NCBI RefSeq assembly: GCF_000015225.1
Contig: NC_008698.1
Coordinates: 1,380,001-1,412,000, forward strand
Source of the DNA: Thermofilum pendens Hrk 5
Lineage (GTDB): Archaea; Thermoproteota; Thermoprotei; Thermofilales; Thermofilaceae
Reading direction: 5' to 3'
Length of the DNA stretch: 32,000 nucleotides
The notes beneath the pieces were generated by a model. That model worked only from the letters and a program-made list of their open reading frames with translations, was not told where the DNA came from and searched no databases. A program made the translations under genes and the position numbers. Shown one piece after another: positions 2,880 to 15,262 of this stretch. The stretch's first letter is position 1. Each line of letters begins with the position of its first letter.

Positions 2880-2908
2880 GCTTTAATTGCCCAAAACCTT
2901 GAAGGTTG

Positions 2909-3445
2909 ATGTTGAAATCCGAGTTCCTGAAGTTACTCGAAGAGGACGCGGAGTTCCGCCACGCGGTGATGGGGCTCCTAGGCATGAGGGAGCTCTTAGA
3001 GCGCTTCGCGAGGCTTGAGGAGAGGTTCAACGAGCTATTGGAGGAGATTAGGGAGCTAAGGAGGATTATCATGGTGGTTAGCCATAGGTTCGGTGTCCTC
3101 ACTGAGTCGGCTTTCCGCGAAGCAATGAAGTACGTGGTAGAGGAGGTACTGGGCGCCGGTGCAGTTAGGAGGGTGACGATGTACGACGAGGAAGGGCTGG
3201 TTTACGGGCACAAGTCCGAGGTAGAGGTAGACCTCGTCGTCAGGGACAGAGAGCACATACTGGTAGAGGTTAAGTCGAGGGTTTCCCGGGGAGACGTCGC
3301 CGAGCTCTACAGGGTTGGCTTGCTCTACGAGAAGCTCTACGGGGTTAAGCCGAGGCTTGTGCTCGTAGGTGGCTTTATCGACACTGATGCTTGGGAGACT
3401 GCGGGCGCTCTAGGCGTGGCTTTGAAGCCGGCTTTGAAGGAGTGA
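2909..3445 (+). CDS. DUF3782-like protein: N-terminal coiled coil + C-terminal PD-(D/E)xK nuclease-fold domain
   Basis: ORF 2906..3445 (TTG 2906, ATG 2909). Heptad-like LEERFNELLEEIRELRR. Nuclease-like core ...SEVEVDLVV...EHILVEVKSR... (D...E-x-K pattern). Confidence 0.55.
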   Translation: MLKSEFLKLLEEDAEFRHAVMGLLGMRELLERFARLEERFNELLEEIRELRRIIMVVSHRFGVLTESAFREAMKYVVEEVLGAGAVRRVTMYDEEGLVYGHKSEVEVDLVVRDREHILVEVKSRVSRGDVAELYRVGLLYEKLYGVKPRLVLVGGFIDTDAWETAGALGVALKPALKE

Positions 3446-5821: not shown

Positions 5822-6231
5822 GTGGGATGTACGAGCATCGAAGACGTCAATAGGTTAATCAGGAGAGCTAGCAGGTTTAGGGATGATGCTGAGAGAGCAT
5901 TCAACGACGTTACTACGACCTGGCTTGCTTCTACGCTGAGCAATCAACTCAATTAAGGCTGAAGGCATTTATATTGAGGCATATGGGCTTTATGCCGAGG
6001 ATCCACGATATTAGGGAGTTGCTAGCGATTATTTATAAGTACACGCGGGACAGTAGGGTTGATGAGTTGATGAGGAGGTTTAGGAGGGAGTTGAGGGACC
6101 TTGTAGAGGGCTACGTAGTAGCTAGGTACGGCAGTATCGATTATAGCCGCGATGACGCCGAGGTTTGCATTGGATTGATGAGGGATTTATGGAGGTTGAT
6201 TGAGAGTGTCGAGGGCGGATGCGTACGTTGA
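5822..6231 (+). pseudogene. HEPN-domain protein (PF05168-like) disrupted by a 1-nt frameshift
   Basis: Frame 2 from GTG 5822 gives ..SIEDVNRLIRRASRFRDDAERAFND. Frame 1 from 5911 continues YYDLACFYAEQSTQLRLKAFILRHMGFMPRIHDIRELL...VVARYGSIDYSRDDAE.. to TGA 6229-6231. The two halves together make one typical ~135-aa HEPN. The junction at 5909-5910 (aacgac-gt-tactac) lacks one base of an expected GGT codon. Confidence 0.75.
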
Positions 6232-6247
6232 CTTCGTTAGGGAGAAG

Positions 6248-6607
6248 ATGAGGCTGTTGTCTAGGTTTCGCGAGCTAGCGCCGTCTGTGCTCAGCGTGGT
6301 TAAGCGTGTGCTGAGTGAGTATGGAGTTGACGACGAGATATTCTTCTTCGGATCCATCGTTGACGGTAAGTACACGGCTGCAAGCGATGTGGATATCGCT
6401 GTGGTGGTTAGGGAGGTGCCGAGGAATAGGTCCGAGATCGCCGGTAAGATTGTGGAGGAGTTAGAAAAAATAGGCGTACCGAGTTGGTTCCCACTTGAGA
6501 TACACTTTCTAACCCCGGACTTATTCGAGGCACTTAGGAGAGGCGGTGCGAACTTTGTCCGGGCTGAGGACTTCGTAGGAACGGCTAACGGCGCTAATGA
6601 GAAGTAA
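6248..6607 (+). CDS. Minimal nucleotidyltransferase (MNT), partner of the upstream HEPN
   Basis: Motif IFFFGSIVDGKYTAASDVDIAVVV (GS...D-x-D). ATG 6248 is preceded by GGGAGAAG. The track ORF starts at TTG 6200, overlapping the HEPN 3' end. Confidence 0.85.
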   Translation: MRLLSRFRELAPSVLSVVKRVLSEYGVDDEIFFFGSIVDGKYTAASDVDIAVVVREVPRNRSEIAGKIVEELEKIGVPSWFPLEIHFLTPDLFEALRRGGANFVRAEDFVGTANGANEK

Positions 6608-6802
6608 ACTGTGAAATCCCCGCAGCTCGTCCGAAGCAATTCACTGGGGACTGCGCGCTTAACGCGTGTCGAAGTTCTTCACTGCATCGCGCGATGCCGT
6701 GAAGGTTGCACTAAAAGAGCCTTCATAAGCTCGTAACGGGGTAAGCGCGCGTGCCGCGCGCGGGAACCACCCATGTGTTTGGATGGGGTGGGGCTCGCTG
6801 AG

Positions 6803-7132
6803 CTAGGGATCGATTCCTAGCTTGCTGAGTATTAATGCTGTTAGCCTGGATGCCGCTCTAGCTAGTTCCAAGGCTCTCTCGGCATCGCTCCTCGTGTACA
6901 CTTCCCACGGTAGTAGGCCTCTTTCGGGCTCGCCGTACGTAGCTCTGCCGTGCTCGGGGGCTAACGTTTTCGCGATGTCGGCTAGCTCTGCGGCCTCTCT
7001 CTGCGCGTCAGCGGGTATCGAGCCTAAGAGAGATAGGAGTTCGCCGGATGGGTCGTGGCTCCAGCTCGGCACCCTGAAGTAAGCTATTACTGCTTTAGCG
7101 TAGTTCTCGACAGCTAGTTGCGCACTTCCCAC
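6803..7132 (-). CDS. HEPN-domain protein (second copy); start codon uncertain
   Basis: Motifs AVENYAKAVIAYFRVPSWSHDP...LAPEHGRATYGEPE...SDAERALELA. The frame stays open and HEPN-like (YLREAEEAYRRGDWRAT) up to 7192, but the first ATG/GTG/TTG is GTG 7130-7132. Confidence 0.7.
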   Translation of the reverse strand: MGSAQLAVENYAKAVIAYFRVPSWSHDPSGELLSLLGSIPADAQREAAELADIAKTLAPEHGRATYGEPERGLLPWEVYTRSDAERALELARAASRLTALILSKLGIDP

Positions 7133-7209
7133 GGTCGCCCTCCAGTCCCCCCTTCTGTACGCTTCCTCGGCTTCCCTCAGGTACCCCCTGGGCTAGCCTT
7201 AACCTGTAT

Positions 7210-7701
7210 CTAAGCTCGCTCGCTGGGTTGAACACCGCTCAACCCCGGCTGCATTATTGGTTTGCCGTCGCGCCTCATCCACCCGTACTTGCCGTCGCTA
7301 GTCCTATACCTCACCAGGTCGAGTTCCCGTATGATCCCGAGGACTCTCTCCTTGAACCTGTGCAGGGATCCGTCGTAGTCGCACGCTACTACTCCGTCGT
7401 AGCCTATGTTCACCATGAGCGATGTCCAGTCACCGCTTGTTAATACGTCGACTGTAGTTGTTACGAGGGTTAGCGGTTTGTCTACGTGCTTAGCTATAGC
7501 CTTGTACGCCCTGGCCCTAACTTCGAAGCCCCTAAGCGTCTTGAAGACCACGAATACGTCGACGTCGCTGCGCTCGCCAGCCTCGCACCTAGCGAAGCTT
7601 CCGAACAGCATGAGGCCTACGAACTCATCGCCGAACACCCTTCTAAGCTCTTTGCAGGCGTTGATTAGCCCGCTCCAAACGTCGTCGAGGCACATCTCCA
7701 T
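7210..7701 (-). CDS. Nucleotidyltransferase (MNT family) with a C-terminal extension, partner of HEPN 6803..7132
   Basis: Motif LMLFGSFARCEAGERSDVDVFVVF. Preferred start is ATG 7701 (MEMCLDD...). The track ORF starts at TTG 7767, only 4 nt from the TATA at 7771-7778. Confidence 0.8.
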   Translation of the reverse strand: MEMCLDDVWSGLINACKELRRVFGDEFVGLMLFGSFARCEAGERSDVDVFVVFKTLRGFEVRARAYKAIAKHVDKPLTLVTTTVDVLTSGDWTSLMVNIGYDGVVACDYDGSLHRFKERVLGIIRELDLVRYRTSDGKYGWMRRDGKPIMQPGLSGVQPSERA

Positions 7702-7770
7702 GATACGCACGGCGAGGGCAGAGATAAGCGTTGCGCGAACCAGGAGCTCATGCTTGTTGAAGGTCAACCC

Positions 7771-7778
7771 TTATATAC
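7771..7778. promoter_or_regulatory. TATA element (TTATATAC) in the divergent MNT / vapB spacer
   Basis: Lies ~33 nt upstream of vapB ATG 7808. May also serve the minus-strand MNT gene. Confidence 0.35.
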
Positions 7779-7807
7779 TACGTTCGTTACTACTTTTGGG
7801 GAAGACG

Positions 7808-8035
7808 ATGGGTGGCTACGTTACCGTCTCCGCTAAGGTTAGGAGGGAGCTTAAAGAGGAGGCGGAGAGGCTGGGTATCAGGATTTCCGAGGTTCTTAGG
7901 CGCGCGTTGGAGGAGGAGGTTAAGCGGCGCAAGCTGGAGGAGCTCGAGAAGAGGCTCGAAGCCATGCGCGGCGCGCTGGAGAGGATAGACGTCGAGAGGG
8001 TTGTGAGGGGGATTAGGGAGGATAGGGAGAGGTAG
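7808..8035 (+). CDS. vapB: VapB-type antitoxin (ribbon-helix-helix-like N-terminus + coiled-coil tail)
   Basis: MGGYVTVSAKVRRELKEEAERLGIRISEVLRRALEEE. 75 aa, ending 6 nt before the PIN gene. Only the last 75 codons of track ORF 7406..8035 look coding. Confidence 0.75.
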   Translation: MGGYVTVSAKVRRELKEEAERLGIRISEVLRRALEEEVKRRKLEELEKRLEAMRGALERIDVERVVRGIREDRER

Positions 8036-8041
8036 CCCTGG

Positions 8042-8443
8042 ATGGAGAGGAGGTTCCTCCTGGACGCCTCGTCGGTCGTGCAGGCCTTGAAGCTCGGGAA
8101 CTTGAGGGTAATCTACGGGAACTACATCCAGTGGCTTACCGTATACGAGGTTGTTAACGCGCTTTGGAAGGAGGCCCTGCTGGCCGGTAGTATAAGCGTC
8201 GAGGAGGCCTCCAACCTGGTCGAGGTGTTCGCCGAGACCGTTAAGCTCGTAGAGGTGCTGAGCCCCCACCCGTACGAGGCGGAGATACTGGAGACAGCCG
8301 CCAAGCTGGGGTTAACGGCTTACGACGCGTCCTACGTGGTGCTAGCGATAAGGAACGGTTTATCCCTGGTGACCGAGGACAGGGTGCTGAGGGAGAAGGC
8401 GAAAGGCGTAGTTAAAGCTGTGAGCCTAAGGGAAGTACTCTAG
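8042..8443 (+). CDS. vapC: PIN-domain ribonuclease toxin VapC
   Basis: 133 aa. Acidic PIN residues in FLLDASSVV, ..YEVVNAL.., LTAYDASYVVLA and LVTEDRVL. Confidence 0.85.
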   Translation: MERRFLLDASSVVQALKLGNLRVIYGNYIQWLTVYEVVNALWKEALLAGSISVEEASNLVEVFAETVKLVEVLSPHPYEAEILETAAKLGLTAYDASYVVLAIRNGLSLVTEDRVLREKAKGVVKAVSLREVL

Positions 8444-8452
8444 AGCGCACGC

Positions 8453-8998
8453 TCAAACAGGCTTGTTCGGCGGGGGCAGGACGCCTCTCTTCAACAGGAA
8501 ACCCTTCGCCATCGCTATGGCGACCCTCAGCTTCCCCGCGTACCTCGCCAGCTCCTCCCTCCTGCTCTCCCTCCACTCCATGATGAGCAAGTCGTGTATC
8601 TTTTCGAGTTCGAAGACGTCGTCCCACGTCAGCTCGTCGGGGTCCTTGGATAGGAGCTGGCCGAGCCTCTCGTAAACCTCCTTCGTGTAGTACTTCGTCT
8701 TGGGCTGAGGCCTGGAGACAGCCAAGAGGGTCTGGAGAGCCTTGTACTCGGTGCCCGCTAGGAGCCCTTTGCCTACCTGTATGGAGAGCAGAGCCTCGTT
8801 GAAGTCGACTAAGCTGTTAACGCTTCTAGTGATCTCGTCGAGCCTGCTCTCTAAGCCGCCAAGCCTACTCTCTAGGCCGCTTAACCTTTTCTCGACGTAA
8901 GCAATCCTCCTCTCGATGTAGACTACCAGGATTGCTATGGCTGTGGCTACGAGGGGGGCTTGCGTAACGAGTAGCGAGACGAGGTCGAGCAACTCCAT
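8453..8998 (-). CDS. Hypothetical membrane-anchored coiled-coil protein
   Basis: N-terminal hydrophobic helix (LVTQAPLVATAIAILVVYI). Tandem RLSGLESRLGGLESRL encoded by a 2 x 21-nt repeat at 8841-8882. Helical C-terminal domain. No recognisable catalytic motif. Confidence 0.6.
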   Translation of the reverse strand: MELLDLVSLLVTQAPLVATAIAILVVYIERRIAYVEKRLSGLESRLGGLESRLDEITRSVNSLVDFNEALLSIQVGKGLLAGTEYKALQTLLAVSRPQPKTKYYTKEVYERLGQLLSKDPDELTWDDVFELEKIHDLLIMEWRESRREELARYAGKLRVAIAMAKGFLLKRGVLPPPNKPV

Positions 8999-9067: not shown

Positions 9068-10254
9068 CTACGCGCGGCCGGGAGAAAAGCGCGTCGCCAG
9101 CGCGGCGGTGGCTGGCAGGGAGGCTAGTAGCACCGAGGAGGCTACCAGCAACGCCGGGAGGCTTTGAGCGGCAATGCCGGCGGCCAGGCTGAACGGGAGC
9201 CCCGCCAGGGCTCCCAACACGTAGAGAGTTGCAAGCGCCTTGCCGACGTCGCCTCCCATGCTTCTCTGCACCGCCGAGAGGATCCAGAGGAAAAACGCGC
9301 CGTTCCCGAAGCCGTTCAACGTCGAGAAGGCGAGTAGGATCGTGGCGAGGAGAAGGCTGGGCTCCGCGGACATGGATAGCCCCAGCAAGGCGGGGTACGC
9401 GGAGAGGAGCAACAGGCCGGCGTAGAGGAAGCCTTCCCCGAGGACGCCCCTCCTCGCGGCCAGCGCGCTCGCAGCCAGGGAGCCTAGCCCGGTGAGGGCG
9501 GAGAGCAGGGAGTAGCTAGCCGTGAAGCCTGGTAGCACTTCCCCGAGCCTGCCCGCTACAAGCGCCACCGAGACGTTTACGAGCGCACCCACGCCGGATA
9601 TCGCCGTTGAGAGTACTAGGGCGAGGCGCGGGGCCCTGGAGCCTGCGAGCCTGCACAGCGCTTGGAGAAAGCCGCCGCCGGGCCCTATTGGCGCGTTTAG
9701 GCCTCTACGCGCCAGTACAGCCGTTAACAGTGCGAGGGCTGAGAGCTCGAGGGCGACAGCCGCGGAGATGCCCGCGGGGCCGGCGGAGGCCATCCACGCG
9801 GCTAGAGGGGGGCCCGCCACCATGGCGATGGAGTACGACACTTCGAGCACGGCGTTGACCCTCTCGGGAGCCTCCGGGTCGAGGATGGGGGCAGGGCGTA
9901 CTTCAAAGCGCCGTACGACGCGAGGACCGCTTCCAGGCCGAGCGCTAGGAGGACTAGGAGGGTCGGGGGCGGCGCTCGGAGGCTTAGCGCCCAGTGTGCG
10001 GCGGCTGTGAAGACGGGGATGGACCAGGCTGTGCACAGCAGGACGAGGCCTGCCCCCTTCTTGTCCGCGGCGTAGCCCAGGAGGATTGTTAGCGCGGCGG
10101 AGGCTAGGAGGCGGGCGGCGAAAACCGCGGATACCGCTAGGGCTCCGCCGGCCCGGGTGTACGCGGCTTCCAGCAGGCATAGAGACACGTACCACAGCGC
10201 AACGCTCACGGAGAGGTCTGCAACGCCGAGTACGAGCGAGCCGCGGGTCTCCAC
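9068..10254 (-). pseudogene. MFS transporter (MFS_3/EntS-like) split by a frameshift in a G5/C5 homopolymer
   Basis: The N-terminal ~120 codons are in the frame of ORF 9802..10254 (GTG 10254; ...LEAVLASYGALKYALP). The C-terminal ~270 codons are in the frame of ORF 9068..10396 (PILDPEAPERVNAVLEVSYSIAMVAGPP...). The frames meet at the G5 run 9887-9891; one extra C/G would restore ..KYALPPILDPE... Confidence 0.75.
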
Positions 10255-10377
10255 GCGTAGCCCTAGCCCCTCTTGACGTAAAAGTTTTCTGCATAGAGGT
10301 AATTTGCAAAACTGCTTTAGCTGTCCGAGGGCTGGTATAGCTTTTTGTCGAAACTGTTTTCGATAAAGTTTTTAAGA

Positions 10378-11094
10378 ATGAAAAGCGCCCTCCCAAGCGT
10401 GGTTACGCCGCAGGAAGTCGGCTGGACTATCGCCCTCTTCGCCTGGGTAATGTTCGTAGTGCTCGTCGTGGCTAAGGCTACCTACAACTTCTTCGTTAAG
10501 AGGAGCAACGAGCGCGTCGCTATCTACTACGCCAGGAAGGTTATACACATCCTCGCCGGGGGGCTTGTCGCGGCGGTTATCGCGTACTTCCCGATATTCT
10601 CGACCCCCGTACTGCCGTTCGCGATGGCGATGGTGCTGGCTCTCCTAACTTACCTGCCTCACAGGACGGGCAAGCTGATGTACTGGTTCCAGGACCCCGA
10701 GAACATCTACGAGGTGGACTTCTGCTTGATGTGGGGCGTGTTCGTCGTTCTCGGCTGGTTCGTCGGGAGGGACCTTAAGCTGGCCAACCCGTTCCTGTTC
10801 CCAGCGCTCCCCCTGCTCTTCATGGCTGTCGGCGACGGGGTTACGGGGATAGTTAGGAACGCTCTCTTCAAGAGGAGGGTTAAGCACTGGAGCGGGAACC
10901 TCGCGATGTTCATAGTGTCCGCCGCCATGGCTGTCGCCATGGGGTTCGGCGTCCCGGGAGTACTGTCCGCCGCCCTCGCCAGCCTGGTGGAGAGGTGGGA
11001 GTACATCGGAAAGCTGAGGATAGACGACAACGTCTCCGTGCCGACGGTCTCCTTCGCCGCCCTCTACCTGCTCACGCGGTACGTGCCGGTCTAG
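10378..11094 (+). CDS. Polytopic membrane protein of the CTP-dependent polyprenol (dolichol/phytol) kinase / CdsA-like superfamily
   Basis: Motifs ARKVIHILAGG, AVGDGVTGIVRNALFKRRVKHWSGNLAMF and DDNVSVP. ATG 10378; alternative TTG 10345. Confidence 0.55.
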   Translation: MKSALPSVVTPQEVGWTIALFAWVMFVVLVVAKATYNFFVKRSNERVAIYYARKVIHILAGGLVAAVIAYFPIFSTPVLPFAMAMVLALLTYLPHRTGKLMYWFQDPENIYEVDFCLMWGVFVVLGWFVGRDLKLANPFLFPALPLLFMAVGDGVTGIVRNALFKRRVKHWSGNLAMFIVSAAMAVAMGFGVPGVLSAALASLVERWEYIGKLRIDDNVSVPTVSFAALYLLTRYVPV

Positions 11095-12710
11095 GCATCG
11101 GCGTACTCGGGCGTCCTCGAGACCTCTCGGGTAGCTAGCAGACGCTTTTCTTCCTGTATGAGTCTGAGGGCGTACTCCTCGTACTGGTATATCTTCGCGG
11201 ACACCGCGAGCCTGAAGCCGCTCGGGGGGCTGACCACTATCGCCTCCCCCCTGTCGAGGGTCTTTATCTCGGCTTCGGCCTCGTCGAGGTACGGGCTGTG
11301 GTTCATGACGGCGAGGTAGTCGGGCCTCGTTGGAAGGGAGAGTATGACCTTGGTGAGCGCCTGCCTCACCACCGCGTCCATGAGCTCGCTGGGCATCTGC
11401 GTTATGTAGAGCCCTCCGACCTTGTACTTCCTGCCCCTCTTCGCTATTATGGAGAACACGTTCTCCCTGACCTCCCCCTTCCCGCCCAGCGCCTGGGACC
11501 CGAGGTACCTGTGCGCCTCCTCCACCATTATGAGCACGGGCGGGAGCTGGCTCCACTTCTCCGGGAGCTCCTTGCGCATCCTCTCGTAGGCCCTGAATAC
11601 CCTCTCGGCGACCACGGTCGCTAGGAGCTTTTCCTCGCCTTCCGTCGCGAAGGGGGTTTCTATGAGAACGACCCTGCCCTTGAGGACCATCGAGAGAACG
11701 GCCGCCGCCAGGTCGTAGCCGCAGTCCCTGCAGAATACCGAGCCGTCCCCCGTCAGGTACCTGATCTTCCTCTTAGTAACGCTGATCGTGTTGACGCCCG
11801 CCATCCTGCCGAGCCTCGAGTAGACTGTCCTCGCGTCCCCCGAGAGGAGCGCCTCCACCCACCCCTCCCCGAACTGCTTGTAGGCAAGCCAGAGTAGCTC
11901 CTCCTGGGGGCTCGAGAACTCGCCCGTGAGCGCGAAGTCCCCCGGCTTGAGGCGCGAGACGTCCATCTTGAGGGGGTAGGCCGGTATGCTCCTCTCCTCC
12001 CCGAGCTCCGGGAGCTCTACCCTCAGCCTCCCGGGCCTGGGGACCCTGGCCGACACGAGGAAGAGGTACTCCTCGGAGAACGGCAGGTGCGCCAGTCCCA
12101 TCTCGCCCGGCTTCGAGCCCAGCAGGTACTCGCTCTCGCAGTCGAATACGACGAGGCTGTACCTCCCCCTGAGGTGCAGTATCGAGGCTGCCAGGACCCT
12201 GCCGAAGTTGCTCTTACCCGCCCCCGTCCCGCCGACCACGAGTATGTGGTGGGGGATTGTCTTCGCGCCGTCCAGCGCGACCTCGACGTCCACGGCGCTG
12301 TGGCCGAACCTCACCCTGCCTATCGGTATGTCCCCCGTGTGGAGCCTGAGCATCTTCAAGTCCTCCTCGCCGAGCTCCTCGACGGGGGAGAAGAGGGCCG
12401 GGACGCTGCTCGGCCCGTGAACCTCGCCGTCCTCGTCTATCTGCGCCACTATGGTAGCTATGGCTGTGTCGTAGAGCCTGAGGTCCCTGTCCCTCAGCTG
12501 GGGCTTCTCGCCTCTGTCCGCCTTGCTACTAATGATCGCTACCTCCGCCGGCGTCAAGAGGCTCTCGGGCTTGAAGTCCACTACCTTCAACACGTACCTC
12601 CTGCCGCGGTCTACGACCTTTACCAGCATCCCCCTCTCGACGACAGAGTCCTCGGCTATCCTGAACTTCACGGTGACGCCCTCAGCCCACACGACGACGC
12701 CGAGCCTCAA
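11091..12710 (-). CDS. herA: HerA-like hexameric ATPase/translocase (FtsK-HerA superfamily, DUF87)
   Basis: N-terminal HAS-barrel-like VKFRIAEDSVVERGMLVKVVDRGRRYVLKVVDF. Walker A HHILVVGGTGAGKSN. Walker B-like PVLIMVEEAHRY. TTG 12710 overlaps the nurA TGA (TTGA); alternative GTG 12725. Confidence 0.85.
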   Translation of the reverse strand: MRLGVVVWAEGVTVKFRIAEDSVVERGMLVKVVDRGRRYVLKVVDFKPESLLTPAEVAIISSKADRGEKPQLRDRDLRLYDTAIATIVAQIDEDGEVHGPSSVPALFSPVEELGEEDLKMLRLHTGDIPIGRVRFGHSAVDVEVALDGAKTIPHHILVVGGTGAGKSNFGRVLAASILHLRGRYSLVVFDCESEYLLGSKPGEMGLAHLPFSEEYLFLVSARVPRPGRLRVELPELGEERSIPAYPLKMDVSRLKPGDFALTGEFSSPQEELLWLAYKQFGEGWVEALLSGDARTVYSRLGRMAGVNTISVTKRKIRYLTGDGSVFCRDCGYDLAAAVLSMVLKGRVVLIETPFATEGEEKLLATVVAERVFRAYERMRKELPEKWSQLPPVLIMVEEAHRYLGSQALGGKGEVRENVFSIIAKRGRKYKVGGLYITQMPSELMDAVVRQALTKVILSLPTRPDYLAVMNHSPYLDEAEAEIKTLDRGEAIVVSPPSGFRLAVSAKIYQYEEYALRLIQEEKRLLATREVSRTPEYADA

Positions 12711-13729
12711 CCCACACCACCCCACAGGTACTTCGACTTGAACTCGGAGCCCCCGCTGTCCTCCAGGAGCCTCCTACCCGCGGACTCCGCCCTGCCCACC
12801 CCGAGCTCCTCCAGGAGTAGCTCCCTGTCCATCGAGAGCTCGTCATCGCTAATCCTCGAAAGGTTGTGCACGATCTTCAGCGGCAACGGGTAGCCCGGAG
12901 AGGTGAAGTCCTGGAGGTACGCGAGCATGCCGGCCAGGTAGTCGAAGTCGGCCCTCACGGCCAGCTCCCACGTCACGTCGACCCTGAACGCCGCCGCGTC
13001 CGGCGACAGCCTCGCCGCGCCGACCCCTAGCCCCACACCCCCCAGCCTCTCGCCCTCGAGGAGCGGGTAGTACGCCCAGGGAAGCCCCTTGAAGAGCCTG
13101 TTCCCGAGCCTCGCGACGTAGCCGACCGCGCTTTCGCCGCTCGAGAGGCGTATAGAGGAGGACTTCGGGATCCCGACGACCCTCCAGTCCCTCTCGACCA
13201 GCGCCTTGAAGACCCTCCTAGCCCTAGAGCCCGACCTGAAGAAGAGGGGCCTGTCCAGTAGTATCAGCGCACCCGGGTTCTCCTTGGCGAACCTCAGCGC
13301 AGCTTCGAGCTCGACCTCCGCGAGCCAGTCGCCAGCCTCGTCCAGGCTCTCGACGACCCTAACCCTCTTTACGGGGTCGAATATCTTGACGCGCTCAACC
13401 CCCCTCCACGCGCCCGCGGCGACCTTCGCGGAGACTATCTTAAAGCTCCCCGCGTCGAAGAGTACCCTCGCCGCCGCGTCGACTGCGTAGACGAGCTCCC
13501 TGTGCGGGACCTCCTCCACAGCCCTGAACCTCGACTCCGAGACCGGTGGCCCCCTCACGACGACGCCCTCGAACCTAGCGTACGGGTAGGGGCGCGCGGG
13601 CTCGCCGAGGAGGGTTAGCTGCACAGCCCCGCCGCTCTTCCTGTAGATCTCGTTCACCCTTTCGACGAGCATCTCGACGTCCGCGCCTAGGTAGCCAGCC
13701 TTCTCGAGTAGCGCCACGCCTGCCACCAA
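12707..13729 (-). CDS. nurA: NurA-like 5'-3' nuclease
   Basis: Motifs LVYAVDAAARV, ALILLDRPLFF and SPGYPLPLKIVHNLSRISDDE (NurA-type D/E/D/H set). Start at TTG 13729 or GTG 13726, 23-26 nt downstream of the TATA at 13747-13756. The 63 upstream codons of the track ORF cover AT-rich repeats and look non-coding. Confidence 0.75.
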   Translation of the reverse strand: MVAGVALLEKAGYLGADVEMLVERVNEIYRKSGGAVQLTLLGEPARPYPYARFEGVVVRGPPVSESRFRAVEEVPHRELVYAVDAAARVLFDAGSFKIVSAKVAAGAWRGVERVKIFDPVKRVRVVESLDEAGDWLAEVELEAALRFAKENPGALILLDRPLFFRSGSRARRVFKALVERDWRVVGIPKSSSIRLSSGESAVGYVARLGNRLFKGLPWAYYPLLEGERLGGVGLGVGAARLSPDAAAFRVDVTWELAVRADFDYLAGMLAYLQDFTSPGYPLPLKIVHNLSRISDDELSMDRELLLEELGVGRAESAGRRLLEDSGGSEFKSKYLWGGVG

Positions 13730-13746
13730 GCATGAGTACTTTTTAC

Positions 13747-13756
13747 TTTTTATAAA
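13747..13756 (-). promoter_or_regulatory. TATA box (minus strand TTTATAAAAA) for nurA-herA
   Basis: Classic leaderless spacing to TTG/GTG at 13729/13726. Confidence 0.55.
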
Positions 13757-13819
13757 GGGTAGCGAAGGTACCTCCGTGAAACAACCAACTAGGGGTCGTC
13801 CGACCGTAGTGCGAAGGTA

Positions 13820-13919
13820 AAACGGTAGCATTTTACTGCAACCTTTTCCCGTCGGGAAGCACGGGAAGAATGGTTGCGTTAAAACGTTACCGTTGCTGCT
13901 TCTCTGAAACGGTAGCATT
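13820..13919. repeat. Operator-like repeats: perfect 13-nt direct repeat AAACGGTAGCATT (13820-13832, 13907-13919) plus an inverted partial copy and a palindrome
   Basis: Read directly. The inverted partial copy AACGGTAACGTTTT is the complement of 13881-13894. The palindrome TTCCCGTCGGGAA is at 13845-13857. Hairpin GTAAAA-N8-TTTTAC is at 13817-13836. Confidence 0.6.
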
Positions 13920-13981
13920 AAGCATATATACTAGTAGCGCGCAGTAAGTACGGATGCAGTAAGAGCGTTCCGTGAGCAGCG

Positions 13982-14827
13982 ATGGTAGTGACTGTCCACT
14001 ACGTGGGCTTCCACCCCCGCCTGATCCTCGAGGGCTTCGAGAGGGTCAGGCTGAGGCACCCGGTCGAGCGAGTGTACCTCCTCTACGACGGGAAGCCGGA
14101 CAAGTACGGCGCCGTCTCGAGGTACAACGTGAAGAGGCTCGCAGAGGTGCTCTCGTTCTTCAAGCCCGTCCTCGTAAAGGTTAACCCGCTGAGCCAGGAG
14201 AGCATAGCCTCGCAGGTCTACCAGGTGTTGCTCCACGAGAAGAGGCTGGGCGCCTCGGAGGTGCTGATAGACGTTACCGACATGCCGCCGCTAATGGTCG
14301 CAGTCGTGTCGACGGTGGCGTTGATGTTCCCGAACTGCAGGCTTTACGCCGTGCAACCCGAGCAGATAGGCGCCTTCATACCGGACCCCGAGACCCCCGA
14401 GTTCGCCGACTTCATAAGAGCTAAGGACAACCTGACGGCCTCCGACCTGAAGACTGTCGATAGGCCCAGGGTGAGCCTAGAGGTTATCGACGACGGGGAG
14501 GGCGGGGAGGAAGCCCGCAGAGTCCTAGTAACGCTGTACGTGAAGGGCTCCGCCGACAGCATAACGACCCTGATACGCTGGGTTACGGGGCTACCGCCGG
14601 ACAGGAAGCCCGACCCAACGCTCAAAGCGAGCTACAGCAGGCTAGTCTCGGAGCTGGAGGAGAGAGGCCTCGTCGTCAGGAGGCACGAGGGAAGGAATAG
14701 GAGCGTCGAGCTCACAGACCTCGGGAAGGCCATAGCGGAGGCATACCTGAAGCTCGGGGAAACCCCGTCCCCGAAGCTACCGCCGCTCCCAATGCCCAAG
14801 CCCGCGACAACCCTCGACCTCGCGTAG
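13982..14827 (+). CDS. Putative transcriptional regulator: Csa3/CARF-like N-terminal Rossmann-type domain + C-terminal winged helix-turn-helix
   Basis: N-terminus MVVTVHYVGFHPRLILEGF... and ..VLIDVTDMPPLMVAVVSTVALMF resemble the Csa3 beta1-GF and D-x-T-x-G-x-R segments. C-terminus SYSRLVSELEERGLVVRRHEGRNRSVELTDLGKAIAEAY is wHTH-like. Pro-rich tail. Confidence 0.5.
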   Translation: MVVTVHYVGFHPRLILEGFERVRLRHPVERVYLLYDGKPDKYGAVSRYNVKRLAEVLSFFKPVLVKVNPLSQESIASQVYQVLLHEKRLGASEVLIDVTDMPPLMVAVVSTVALMFPNCRLYAVQPEQIGAFIPDPETPEFADFIRAKDNLTASDLKTVDRPRVSLEVIDDGEGGEEARRVLVTLYVKGSADSITTLIRWVTGLPPDRKPDPTLKASYSRLVSELEERGLVVRRHEGRNRSVELTDLGKAIAEAYLKLGETPSPKLPPLPMPKPATTLDLA

Positions 14828-14833
14828 CCCCCT

Positions 14834-15262
14834 TTAAGCTTTAGCTCTCTCTACGTGCGCCGAGCGCTCGCTTTCAACTATGCGCTCCACATCTCCGACG
14901 TATCTTTCCACCTTCTCCAGCTCCTCGGCGACCTCGTCCGCCCCCAGCGCCCCCTCATGGTATCCCTGCACATGGAGGTAGTAGCCTCTCGCCCCGAATC
15001 TGTCCCTCAACCCGAGCCTAGCTATCTCCGGCTTCTCTCTTTCAAGCTTCCCCAAGAGCTCCCTCCTCTCCCTATAGCTCTCAGGCTTCCCGTAGCCAAG
15101 TGCAACCAGAAGAGCGTCTGTAGCTAAAACCACCGCCAGCCAACCCTTCTCGCACGCGTTCCTCAGTCTTAAGGGCTCACGGTCCTTCCTGTACTCGTCG
15201 ACCTCTCTACGCGCCAGCTCAACGGCTTTCCATGCCTTGGTCAATGCTTCGCTAAAGCTCAC
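14834..15262 (-). CDS. PaREP1-like / HEPN-like four-helix protein
   Basis: All-helical 142 aa. ..LRNACEKGWLAVVLATDALL.. and RFGARGYYLHVQGYHEG (R-x4-H). GTG start. Family assignment is from memory of PaREP1 proteins and is tentative. Confidence 0.45.
   Translation of the reverse strand: MSFSEALTKAWKAVELARREVDEYRKDREPLRLRNACEKGWLAVVLATDALLVALGYGKPESYRERRELLGKLEREKPEIARLGLRDRFGARGYYLHVQGYHEGALGADEVAEELEKVERYVGDVERIVESERSAHVERAKA

Follow-up and report, generated by a model that had tools for sequence, protein, structure and literature searches.

Within a 32,000-nucleotide (nt) stretch of the Thermofilum pendens Hrk 5 genome (contig NC_008698.1, positions 1,380,001 to 1,412,000; hereafter, the window), we investigated a nurA-herA gene pair and the divergently oriented gene of a CARF-domain regulator with a winged helix-turn-helix (wHTH). 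The same three-gene layout is present in all 41 orthologous loci with enough sequence, and the spacer between the divergent genes carries a conserved operator system. On balance, and with moderate confidence, we consider this trio to be a self-contained, ligand-regulated regulon that serves as a DNA-end-processing module. Coordinates of all features are collected in Table 1.

Distribution and linkage of the regulator-nurA-herA trio

In the window, the TGA stop codon of nurA (12709-12707) lies over the TTG start codon of herA (12710-12708), and this TTGA overlap, which an earlier note on this DNA had described correctly, predicts that the two genes are translationally coupled. A 4-nt overlap recurs in about half of the 41 orthologous loci, and nearly all of the remaining ones show 13 nt or less at this junction. 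The TTG start codon of nurA at 13729 agrees with orthologue alignments. At the protein level, HerA and the regulator show 100% identity to T. pendens entries at NCBI, and the locus maps to ∼628 kb of CM138769.1 (assembly GCA_054696865.1). The regulator gene stands on the opposite strand, divergent from nurA, across a measured spacer of 252 bp (the earlier note had put it at about 250 bp).

A HerA profile scan of one genome per GTDB species returned 44 loci, to which the three window proteins were compared by tblastn; five loci without one of the components end at a contig edge. All 41 loci that were informative carry the divergent trio: 39 come from species genomes, and the other two from a second Infirmifilum assembly and from a metagenome contig. 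The co-occurrence that the earlier note had raised for this gene set holds wherever it could be read. The shared layout consists of the regulator gene, a spacer of ∼250 bp (197-356 bp), and then nurA-herA on the other strand; it is kept in both Infirmifilum assemblies, as well as in the most divergent orthologous locus found (L047, with a HerA identity of 42%). The hosts comprise Thermofilum, Infirmifilum, other Thermofilaceae/Thermoproteales, Methanomethylicia, Culexmicrobium (Culexarchaeia), and metagenome-assembled genomes labelled 'Nitrososphaerota'; herA was also found in a Nezhaarchaeales locus that is truncated. Relative to the window proteins, identity declines roughly with taxonomic distance, from ∼80% to 46% for HerA, from 61% to 29% for NurA, and from 59% to 24% for the regulator, with a mean pairwise HerA identity of 58%. 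Moreover, the pairwise-identity matrices of the three proteins correlate with r values of 0.64-0.85 (0.85 for NurA-HerA co-evolution), indicating that the three proteins were inherited together. The species scan detected one trio locus per genome assembly, and the distribution of the trio looks vertical, not patchy.

Linkage to mre11 or rad50 was found in none of ∼46 loci, and no tblastn match to the Mre11 and Rad50 of a metagenome contig described below (L048) was obtained in the trio loci; the earlier note had reckoned with orthologues that sit beside mre11-rad50, and no such locus emerged. Its statement that neither gene lies within the 32 kb also stands, as a domain scan of all sizeable open reading frames (ORFs) of the window returned no Mre11 (Metallophos) or Rad50 (SMC_N) domain. 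A conserved fourth gene was considered and rejected, since none was found among 289 clustered flanking ORFs. The 147 flanking proteins taken from 32 other loci belong most often to the Pfam families of radical SAM enzymes, methyltransferases, ABC transporters, AIR-synthase-like proteins, and similar ones, and the 25 commonest families include no cas, Mre11, or Rad50. These housekeeping flanks led us to reject a defence-island context as a general property of the trio. The earlier note had placed the locus among HEPN/MNT, VapBC, and PaREP1-like genes. The genes themselves are real (MNT, HEPN, CcdA-like/PIN, and PaREP1), and the toxin-antitoxin cluster (6200-8443) is within 5 kb of the trio in T. 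pendens; PIN/CcdA/MazE genes are also present near the Infirmifilum copy (L001), and the cluster is otherwise not conserved beside the trio. The flank survey therefore indicates that such surroundings are local to T. pendens and Infirmifilum and are not a property of the module.

Trio genes were also found on two short contigs binned as Aenigmatarchaeota/Woesearchaeota (L007, of 3 kb, and the contig of proteins P0041 and P0130, of 4.4 kb). Their products are 57-59% identical to T. pendens HerA, as near as those of Thermofilaceae, which suggests either mis-binning or recent transfer.

A conserved operator system in the divergent spacer

A 13-nt sequence, AAACGGTAGCATT, is repeated perfectly in the spacer (13820-13832 and 13907-13919), which also contains an inverted copy at 13883-13894; the chance expectation for such a repeat pair in 250 bp is ∼4e-4. 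The earlier note had called these repeats operator-like, and they indeed belong to a conserved operator system with fixed positions in 22 loci. When 12 spacers were aligned, a conserved TATA block emerged at either end, along with GTAAC/GTTAC elements that recur. The motif GGTAAC-N8-GTTACC (≤2 mismatches) occurs 32 times in 10.3 kb of spacer sequence, or 3.1 times per kb, against a background rate of 0.076 per kb, which amounts to a ∼40-fold enrichment, and half-site spacings other than N8 are essentially absent. A position matrix was refined from these sites and used to scan the window at a score of ≥10. The sole matches in the 32 kb were the two spacer sites that we designate O1 and O2; 0.05 matches scoring ≥15 are expected in shuffled sequences.

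In 22 loci, two strong sites lie at fixed positions, with centres ∼100 and ∼146 nt from the regulator ATG. In 21 of these 22 loci, the centres of O1 and O2 are 44-48 bp apart (48 bp in the window), and the stretch between the two sites, which varies in sequence, measures 24-28 bp (15 bp in a single locus). Many loci have an O2 that is exactly or almost exactly the reverse complement of O1; in a few, the two sites are direct repeats. We also considered a conserved RNA or hairpin in the spacer and rejected it: the A/T-rich inner spacers are inverted or direct depending on the locus, and the Rfam search was empty. The large palindrome of the spacer is thus explained by two near-palindromic protein sites. 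Among the copies of the 13-mer, that at 13820-13832 constitutes the outer half of O2, and that at 13907-13919 is a lone half-site; where the latter lies, other loci conserve a block of the form (T/C)nAACnGTTAC.

Both divergent promoters are predicted from position. The most conserved block in the alignment of 12 spacers, GTATATAT, occupies the regulator TATA position, and a TTTTTAAG/TTTATAAA block is conserved at the nurA TATA position. The location of the latter box would imply a leaderless or near-leaderless nurA-herA transcript that begins near 13729. Beside the nurA TATA box, the spacer alignment revealed a further conserved block, GTTACCnTCGnTACC, and several loci have weaker matrix matches there; the window equivalent, at 13757-13772, comprises two half-sites with a putative regulatory function.

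The spacer varies outside this core. The small perfect palindrome midway between O1 and O2 (13846-13858) has an equivalent CCTCCC...GGG element in Thermofilum and Infirmifilum loci, which is absent from more distant ones, and it loosely resembles the Csa3a site TCCC-N8-GGGA. Five Methanomethylicia/Culexarchaeia-type loci (L025, L027, L030, L034, and L045) have a longer spacer of 328-356 bp, with the operator motif ∼72 and/or ∼211 nt from the regulator start, and in another five (L026, L028, and L031-L033), an operator site overlaps the regulator TATA box. Judged by sequence, loci of the distant subgroup have retained the operator motif in a rebuilt spacer architecture.

A CARF and winged-helix regulator of Csa3 architecture

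The regulator matched Pfam family PF22665 (C-terminal wHTH) with 30.6 bits (cut-off 27) and, weakly, PF19810 (N-terminal domain) with 21.2 bits (cut-off 30), a family recorded for most of the orthologues; its NCBI name is 'DUF6293 family protein [Thermofilum pendens]'. Further, CARF3 (Csa3-type) models of PADLOC matched the protein with E-values down to 7e-12, some of them over the full length, and MarR-like wHTH matches were also obtained. An AlphaFold2 model built from 39 homologues (predicted local distance difference test, pLDDT, 89.9) displays a Rossmann-like domain of five strands and, after it, a winged helix. In a Foldseek comparison of this model with the PDB, the best matches were the Csa3 structures 2wte, 6wxq, and 6w11, with E-values of ∼1e-7, 254-265 aligned columns, template-modelling (TM) scores of 0.62-0.68 (per target length), and sequence identities of 11-14%; ∼40 more CARF structures followed, including Csm6, Cam1, Can2, Card1, Cad1, and ring nucleases. 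Both the PADLOC models and the structural matches corroborate the Csa3/CARF-like N-terminus and the wHTH that the earlier note had recognised, and the modelled fold identifies the protein as a CARF and winged-helix protein of Csa3 architecture; by its Pfam matches and NCBI name, it belongs to the DUF6293/HFX_2341 family.

Among the 39 homologues, the invariant residues are Phe10 and His11 (with Gly9 near-invariant); Asp36, Lys38, and Tyr42; Asn68 and Pro69; Asp97, Thr99, Asp100, Met101, and Pro102; and Gly130, Ile133, Pro134, and Pro136. In the AlphaFold2 model, these residues map to the loops that follow β1 to β5, which comprise the ligand crown of CARF domains. Gly9-Phe10 of Csa3 is retained at identical positions in the regulator, as part of Csa3 motif 1 (T-h-G-F-N/D-E-x4-R), whose Thr, Glu, and Arg are not evident here; the distant regulator subgroup has G-aromatic-D at this motif. 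In the recognition helix, Ser219 and Arg220 are invariant and Lys215 is near-invariant, and the conservation of these three residues fits with an operator half-site that is conserved family-wide. One homologue, P0025, has 443 residues compared with the usual ∼270-295, and may represent a fusion or a mis-called start.

NurA and HerA are predicted to be intact enzymes

The HerA residues of Walker A (Thr162-Gly163-x-Gly165-Lys166) and Walker B (Glu398-Ala399-His400) are invariant in 20 orthologues. An AlphaFold2 model of HerA (pLDDT 85.9) comprises a β-rich, HAS-barrel-like N-terminus and a RecA-like ATPase domain, and its best Foldseek match was Sulfolobus solfataricus HerA (4d2i; E 5e-27, TM 0.75, 530 aligned columns), closely followed by TdpAB, Thermococcus kodakarensis HerA-NurA, Sir2-HerA, DUF4297-HerA, and Deinococcus HerA. 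On this evidence, the window HerA is a DNA translocase of the FtsK-HerA superfamily, predicted to be hexameric. In NurA, Asp84, Glu140, Asp159, Lys189, Asp251, Asp274, and His288 are invariant in 41 orthologues, with Asp84, Glu140, Asp159, and His288 making up the catalytic set. The segments LLDRxL and GYPxPLxxxH align to LMDGSL and GYPFPLLKAH of the S. solfataricus protein (NurA, 2ygk). Since no catalytic or ATPase residue has been lost from NurA and HerA, both enzymes are predicted to be intact.

The specific family of this HerA was examined with equivalog models. It scored 68.5 and 65 bits against the NCBIfam repair equivalogs NF040819 and NF040937 (cut-offs 970 and 800), as well as 65.3 and 54.3 bits against the antiphage-HerA equivalogs NF042943 and NF042944 (cut-offs 800 and 850), and thus belongs to neither by these thresholds. 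The PADLOC model PDLC01055 (type III CRISPR-associated HerA) gave 64 bits compared with 85 bits for the best generic HerA model. No PADLOC system was matched by the trio beyond generic HerA similarity, and NurA had no NCBIfam or PADLOC match. A HerA protein search returned the orthologues and four distant matches only, and a search with the canonical-like P0137 as a query found relatives in Altiarchaeota only. The nearest non-orthologous relative, P0134 (28% identity over 538 residues), is encoded on a metagenome contig in the order mre11-rad50-nurA-herA (L048:1422-7608), and it too remains below the NCBIfam HerA equivalog cut-offs, with 88 bits. We therefore withdrew the failure of the window HerA in these models as proof that it is not a repair HerA, because cut-offs that P0134 fails cannot separate repair from non-repair HerA. 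Both the kinship of P0134 and its operon place the NurA-HerA pair of the trio as sister to repair-type pairs. Moreover, the gene order on this contig indicates that a nurA-then-herA arrangement is not specifically bacterial, and the contrary view in the earlier note, that the bare nurA-herA order is of bacterial type, was too narrow, as is also evident from the stand-alone nurA-herA operon of Sulfolobus islandicus (PMC5587795).

Proposed mechanism and alternative explanations

In the explanation that we favour, the regulator would bind O1 and O2, probably as a dimer, between the divergent TATA boxes, each of which is abutted by weaker half-sites, and would from there control its own gene along with the translationally coupled nurA-herA operon. 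A small molecule in the CARF pocket, not necessarily cyclic tetra-adenylate (cA4), would switch DNA binding, and we lean toward repression that is relieved by the ligand. NurA and HerA would form the usual machine of a HerA hexamer and a NurA dimer, a complex suggested by their translational coupling and co-evolution, which would thread linear double-stranded DNA and degrade or resect it. The presence of one locus per assembly, the joint inheritance of the three proteins, and the housekeeping flanks make the processing of DNA ends upon a signal, during repair or stress, the most likely role, possibly one that also feeds CRISPR adaptation. The data themselves establish which genes are present, their folds, their linkage, and the operator motif with its positions; from these patterns we infer that the regulator binds the operators, that a ligand controls it, that the enzymes are active, and what the trio does in the cell. 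As to the earlier proposal of a NurA-HerA effector under a small-molecule-sensing regulator, its Csa3-like regulator, gene linkage, and operators were borne out, whereas its defence role was not: defence families are missing from the common flanks, cas genes included, no specific PADLOC system is matched, and the arginine of the cA4 clamp is absent.

Several observations weigh against the favoured explanation. Both operators are situated upstream of the two TATA boxes, where archaeal activators more typically bind, and the precedents differ in sign, as Csa3a activates while Csa3b and HFX_2341 repress. CARF domains are otherwise, to our knowledge, almost always tied to antiviral cyclic-oligoadenylate signalling. 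T. pendens itself has type III CRISPR cassettes, with Tpen_1359 listed as a type III neighbour (PMC6546367). In addition, the pair may be an accessory resection machine of the genome, or its sole one. With respect to the ligand, Gly9-Phe10 of Csa3a stacks on an adenine and its motif 2 (Gly96-Met97-Arg98) serves as the cA4 phosphate clamp (PMC8699464). Motif 2 (L-x2-G-h-R) is not kept in the regulator, where the corresponding loop reads Asp97-Val-Thr99-Asp100-Met101-Pro102-Pro103, with an invariant D, T, D, M, and P; T-D-M-P-P takes the place of the motif in the group around T. pendens, and T-S-T-T-K-E in the distant one. The conservation of the CARF loops, taken together with the replacement of motif 2, suggests that a ligand pocket is likely and that cA4 is not a given. 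Such a pocket may bind another ligand or nothing.

An antiviral alternative is that a cyclic oligoadenylate or another infection signal binds the CARF domain and induces nurA-herA, with destruction of invading or host DNA. The trio would then be wired through transcription to type III CRISPR as an ancillary effector, or would form a stand-alone system. This would suit a CARF fold with a strongly conserved pocket and the use of HerA ATPases as motors of several antiphage systems, since the structures of TdpAB, Sir2-HerA, and DUF4297-HerA match our HerA model nearly as well as repair HerA does; it would also suit the toxin-antitoxin genes <5 kb away in T. pendens and Infirmifilum, as well as the type III CRISPR 'co-evolved' HerA/NurA pairs of Thermoproteales and the type III cassettes of T. 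pendens (PMC6546367). However, cas and recognised defence genes are absent from the commonest families of the 147 flanking proteins, no additional component is conserved, HerA identity roughly tracks taxonomy at one locus per assembly while the three proteins co-diverge, and the antiphage-HerA equivalogs reach 54-65 bits against cut-offs of 800-850, with NurA lacking any PADLOC match. Further, the cA4-clamping arginine is missing, induction through transcription would be slow for abortive infection, and relatives of HFX_2341 occur in haloarchaea without CRISPR (PMC11434293). Taking together the vertical-looking inheritance, the housekeeping flanks, the repair-type relatives, and the lack of a cA4 clamp, we favour a cellular role and consider a dedicated antiviral effector less likely; in either of its two forms, we would judge it unlikely. 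A cellular role could also be a purely housekeeping one, with the trio encoding the only NurA-HerA of its lineage, working with an unlinked Mre11-Rad50 under an autoregulator whose CARF domain only dimerises. The high conservation of HerA, the vertical-looking spread, and the housekeeping flanks are as expected in that case, and the nearest outside relatives reside in an mre11-rad50-nurA-herA operon while also failing the equivalog cut-offs. Conservation of the regulator, however, peaks in the CARF pocket loops rather than in the dimer core, which is hard to explain without a ligand. Constantinesco and colleagues (2004, cited in PMC5448004), moreover, are reported to have described herA-mre11-rad50-nurA clusters in thermophilic archaea generally, which counts against this alternative as well. 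We regard it as rather improbable. Least probable, and in our view very unlikely, is a helper of CRISPR adaptation, where the regulator induces NurA-HerA and the resulting DNA fragments become prespacers during infection. Such a model was proposed for S. islandicus, where Csa3a, of the same regulator architecture, activates nurA-herA promoters (PMC5587795). The window, however, contains no cas1, cas2, cas4, or CRISPR array, none of these is found among the commonest flanking families, and the Csa3a site, TCCC-N8-GGGA, is not the same as the GTAAC-N8-GTTAC operator of the trio.

A more speculative proposal, which we hold with little confidence, is that the CARF domain senses a nucleotide second messenger (a cyclic oligoadenylate from the type III CRISPR system of the host, or a signal independent of CRISPR, for example a DNA-damage-related nucleotide) and thereby switches on a NurA-HerA machine that degrades double-stranded DNA. 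If so, the trio would be an ancient, chromosomally fixed transcriptional arm of CARF signalling, and danger sensing would be tied to DNA-end processing across several archaeal classes. The trio bears on the poorly understood control of the essential yet dangerous HerA-NurA end-resection machinery of archaea, as well as on what CARF domains sense outside CRISPR loci; its CARF pocket, despite strong conservation, is without the residue known to clamp cA4. As a system it is compact and testable, with a single regulator, two copies of a 20-bp operator, and one operon as the target, and dozens of genomes have conserved it. The identity of the ligand would tell if CARF signalling extends to DNA repair or if NurA-HerA can act as an inducible immune effector.

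Comparison with known systems

The closest functional parallel is in S. islandicus, where Csa3a binds palindromic sites in the promoters of the stand-alone nurA-herA operon SiRe_0094/0095, binds the promoter of the canonical operon too, and raises the expression of both (PMC5587795). Both systems feature a CARF and wHTH factor with palindromic sites at a nurA-herA promoter (PMC5587795, PMC7515695), with binding being predicted in our case. The trio regulator is wired in cis to nurA-herA, within a three-gene unit that is conserved and has no cas genes around it, whereas the S. islandicus factor belongs to a CRISPR-cas locus and acts in trans at numerous promoters. The two also differ in their operators (GTAAC-N8-GTTAC and TCCC-N8-GGGA, respectively), and the trio regulator departs from Csa3 in its unkept motif 2, its identity of only 11-14%, and its lack of CRISPR-cas association. 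HFX_2341 of Haloferax mediterranei, the prototype of the family, shares the Pfam families PF22665 and PF19810 with the trio regulator. It was linked to Csa3a by HHpred with 99.74% probability, and was described as a global repressor from a vertically inherited family that is not tied to CRISPR loci, with relatives in haloarchaea without CRISPR (PMC11434293). Since Haloferax volcanii has neither HerA nor NurA (PMC7776575), the link of this regulator family to nurA-herA appears specific to the Thermoproteota branch studied here.

Canonical HerA-NurA pairs (S. solfataricus, 4d2i/2ygk; T. kodakarensis, 9x1l-9x1p) have the same families, catalytic and ATPase residues, and translational coupling as the trio pair, whereas the latter is unlinked to mre11-rad50, far from the NCBIfam equivalogs, and provided with a dedicated CARF regulator. 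The antiphage systems Sir2-HerA/Nezha, DUF4297-HerA, and TdpAB also employ a HerA-type hexameric motor, with a structural match nearly equal to that of repair HerA. In contrast to these, the partner in the trio is NurA and not Sir2 or DUF4297, and there is no modification gene and no defence-island context. TdpB of TdpAB is, we presume, a NurA-like nuclease. Stand-alone HerA/NurA pairs of Thermoproteota are also represented by the 'co-evolved' clusters 57/58 of Thermoproteales, for which a cyclic-oligoadenylate link was proposed; unlike the trio, these adjoin type III CRISPR cas cassettes (PMC6546367). A T. pendens HerA homologue, Tpen_1571, is included with the archaeal examples in a hepA gene-neighbourhood figure (PMC5448004) and may be either the window herA or a second gene.

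The protein families and the Csa3-type control of nurA-herA were already known. We found no earlier description of the trio as a unit, its operator, or its distribution in the literature searched, which did not include the 2020 CARF classification, and these three aspects are apparently new. DUF6293 or CARF3 combined with HerA was likewise not found in that literature, and HerA and NurA are both absent from the 2014 CARF/WYL survey.

Features of the window

Table 1. Coordinates of the trio, its spacer elements, and neighbouring genes in the window
Feature	Position	Strand	Sequence	Description
herA	11091-12710	minus		539 aa; Pfam DUF87/HerA central domain, E 1e-14
nurA	12707-13729	minus		340 aa; Pfam NurA PF09376, E 1.2e-7, 31.9 bits (cut-off 21)
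Regulator gene	13982-14827	plus		281 aa; CARF and winged helix, DUF6293/HFX_2341 family
Operator O1	13872-13891		GGTTGCGTTAAAACGTTACC	20 bp, matrix score 19.6; inverted partner of O2
Operator O2	13824-13843		GGTAGCATTTTACTGCAACC	20-bp imperfect palindrome of the GGTAAC-N8-GTTACC type, matrix score 18.6
Lone half-site	13907-13919		AAACGGTAGCATT	just upstream of regulator TATA box, at the BRE (B recognition element) position
Regulator TATA box	13924-13931	plus	ATATATAC	promoter predicted from position
nurA-herA TATA box	13746-13755	minus	TTTATAAAAA	promoter predicted from position alone
Promoter-proximal half-sites	13757-13772		GGTACC-TTC-GCTACC (on the minus strand)	abut nurA TATA box, BRE position; putative regulatory function
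Small perfect palindrome	13846-13858		TTCCCG-T-CGGGAA	midway between O1 and O2
MNT	6200-6607			toxin-antitoxin cluster
HEPN	6803-7132			toxin-antitoxin cluster
Second MNT	7210-7767			toxin-antitoxin cluster
CcdA-like antitoxin and PIN	7406-8443			toxin-antitoxin cluster
PaREP1	14834-15262			neighbour of regulator gene

No CRISPR array, cas gene, tRNA, or Rfam family was found in the window. Apart from the trio and the genes of Table 1, its content is housekeeping and includes NAD synthase, nitrilase, ABC transporters, pyruvate:ferredoxin oxidoreductase, and amylases; because of the high G+C content, long spurious ORFs overlap real genes throughout. A 179-aa protein encoded at 2906-3445 combines DUF3782 with a PD-(D/E)XK nuclease domain (PF07788, E 7e-25). 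A 21-bp tandem repeat of ∼2 copies (8841-8887) is located within a 181-aa ORF (8453-8998) that has a weak DUF948 match only. The 442-aa ORF at 9068-10396 (minus strand) has no Pfam match; the C-terminal two-thirds of its product have the appearance of a membrane protein with multiple passes, and, as its N-terminus is rich in arginine, the real start is probably internal.

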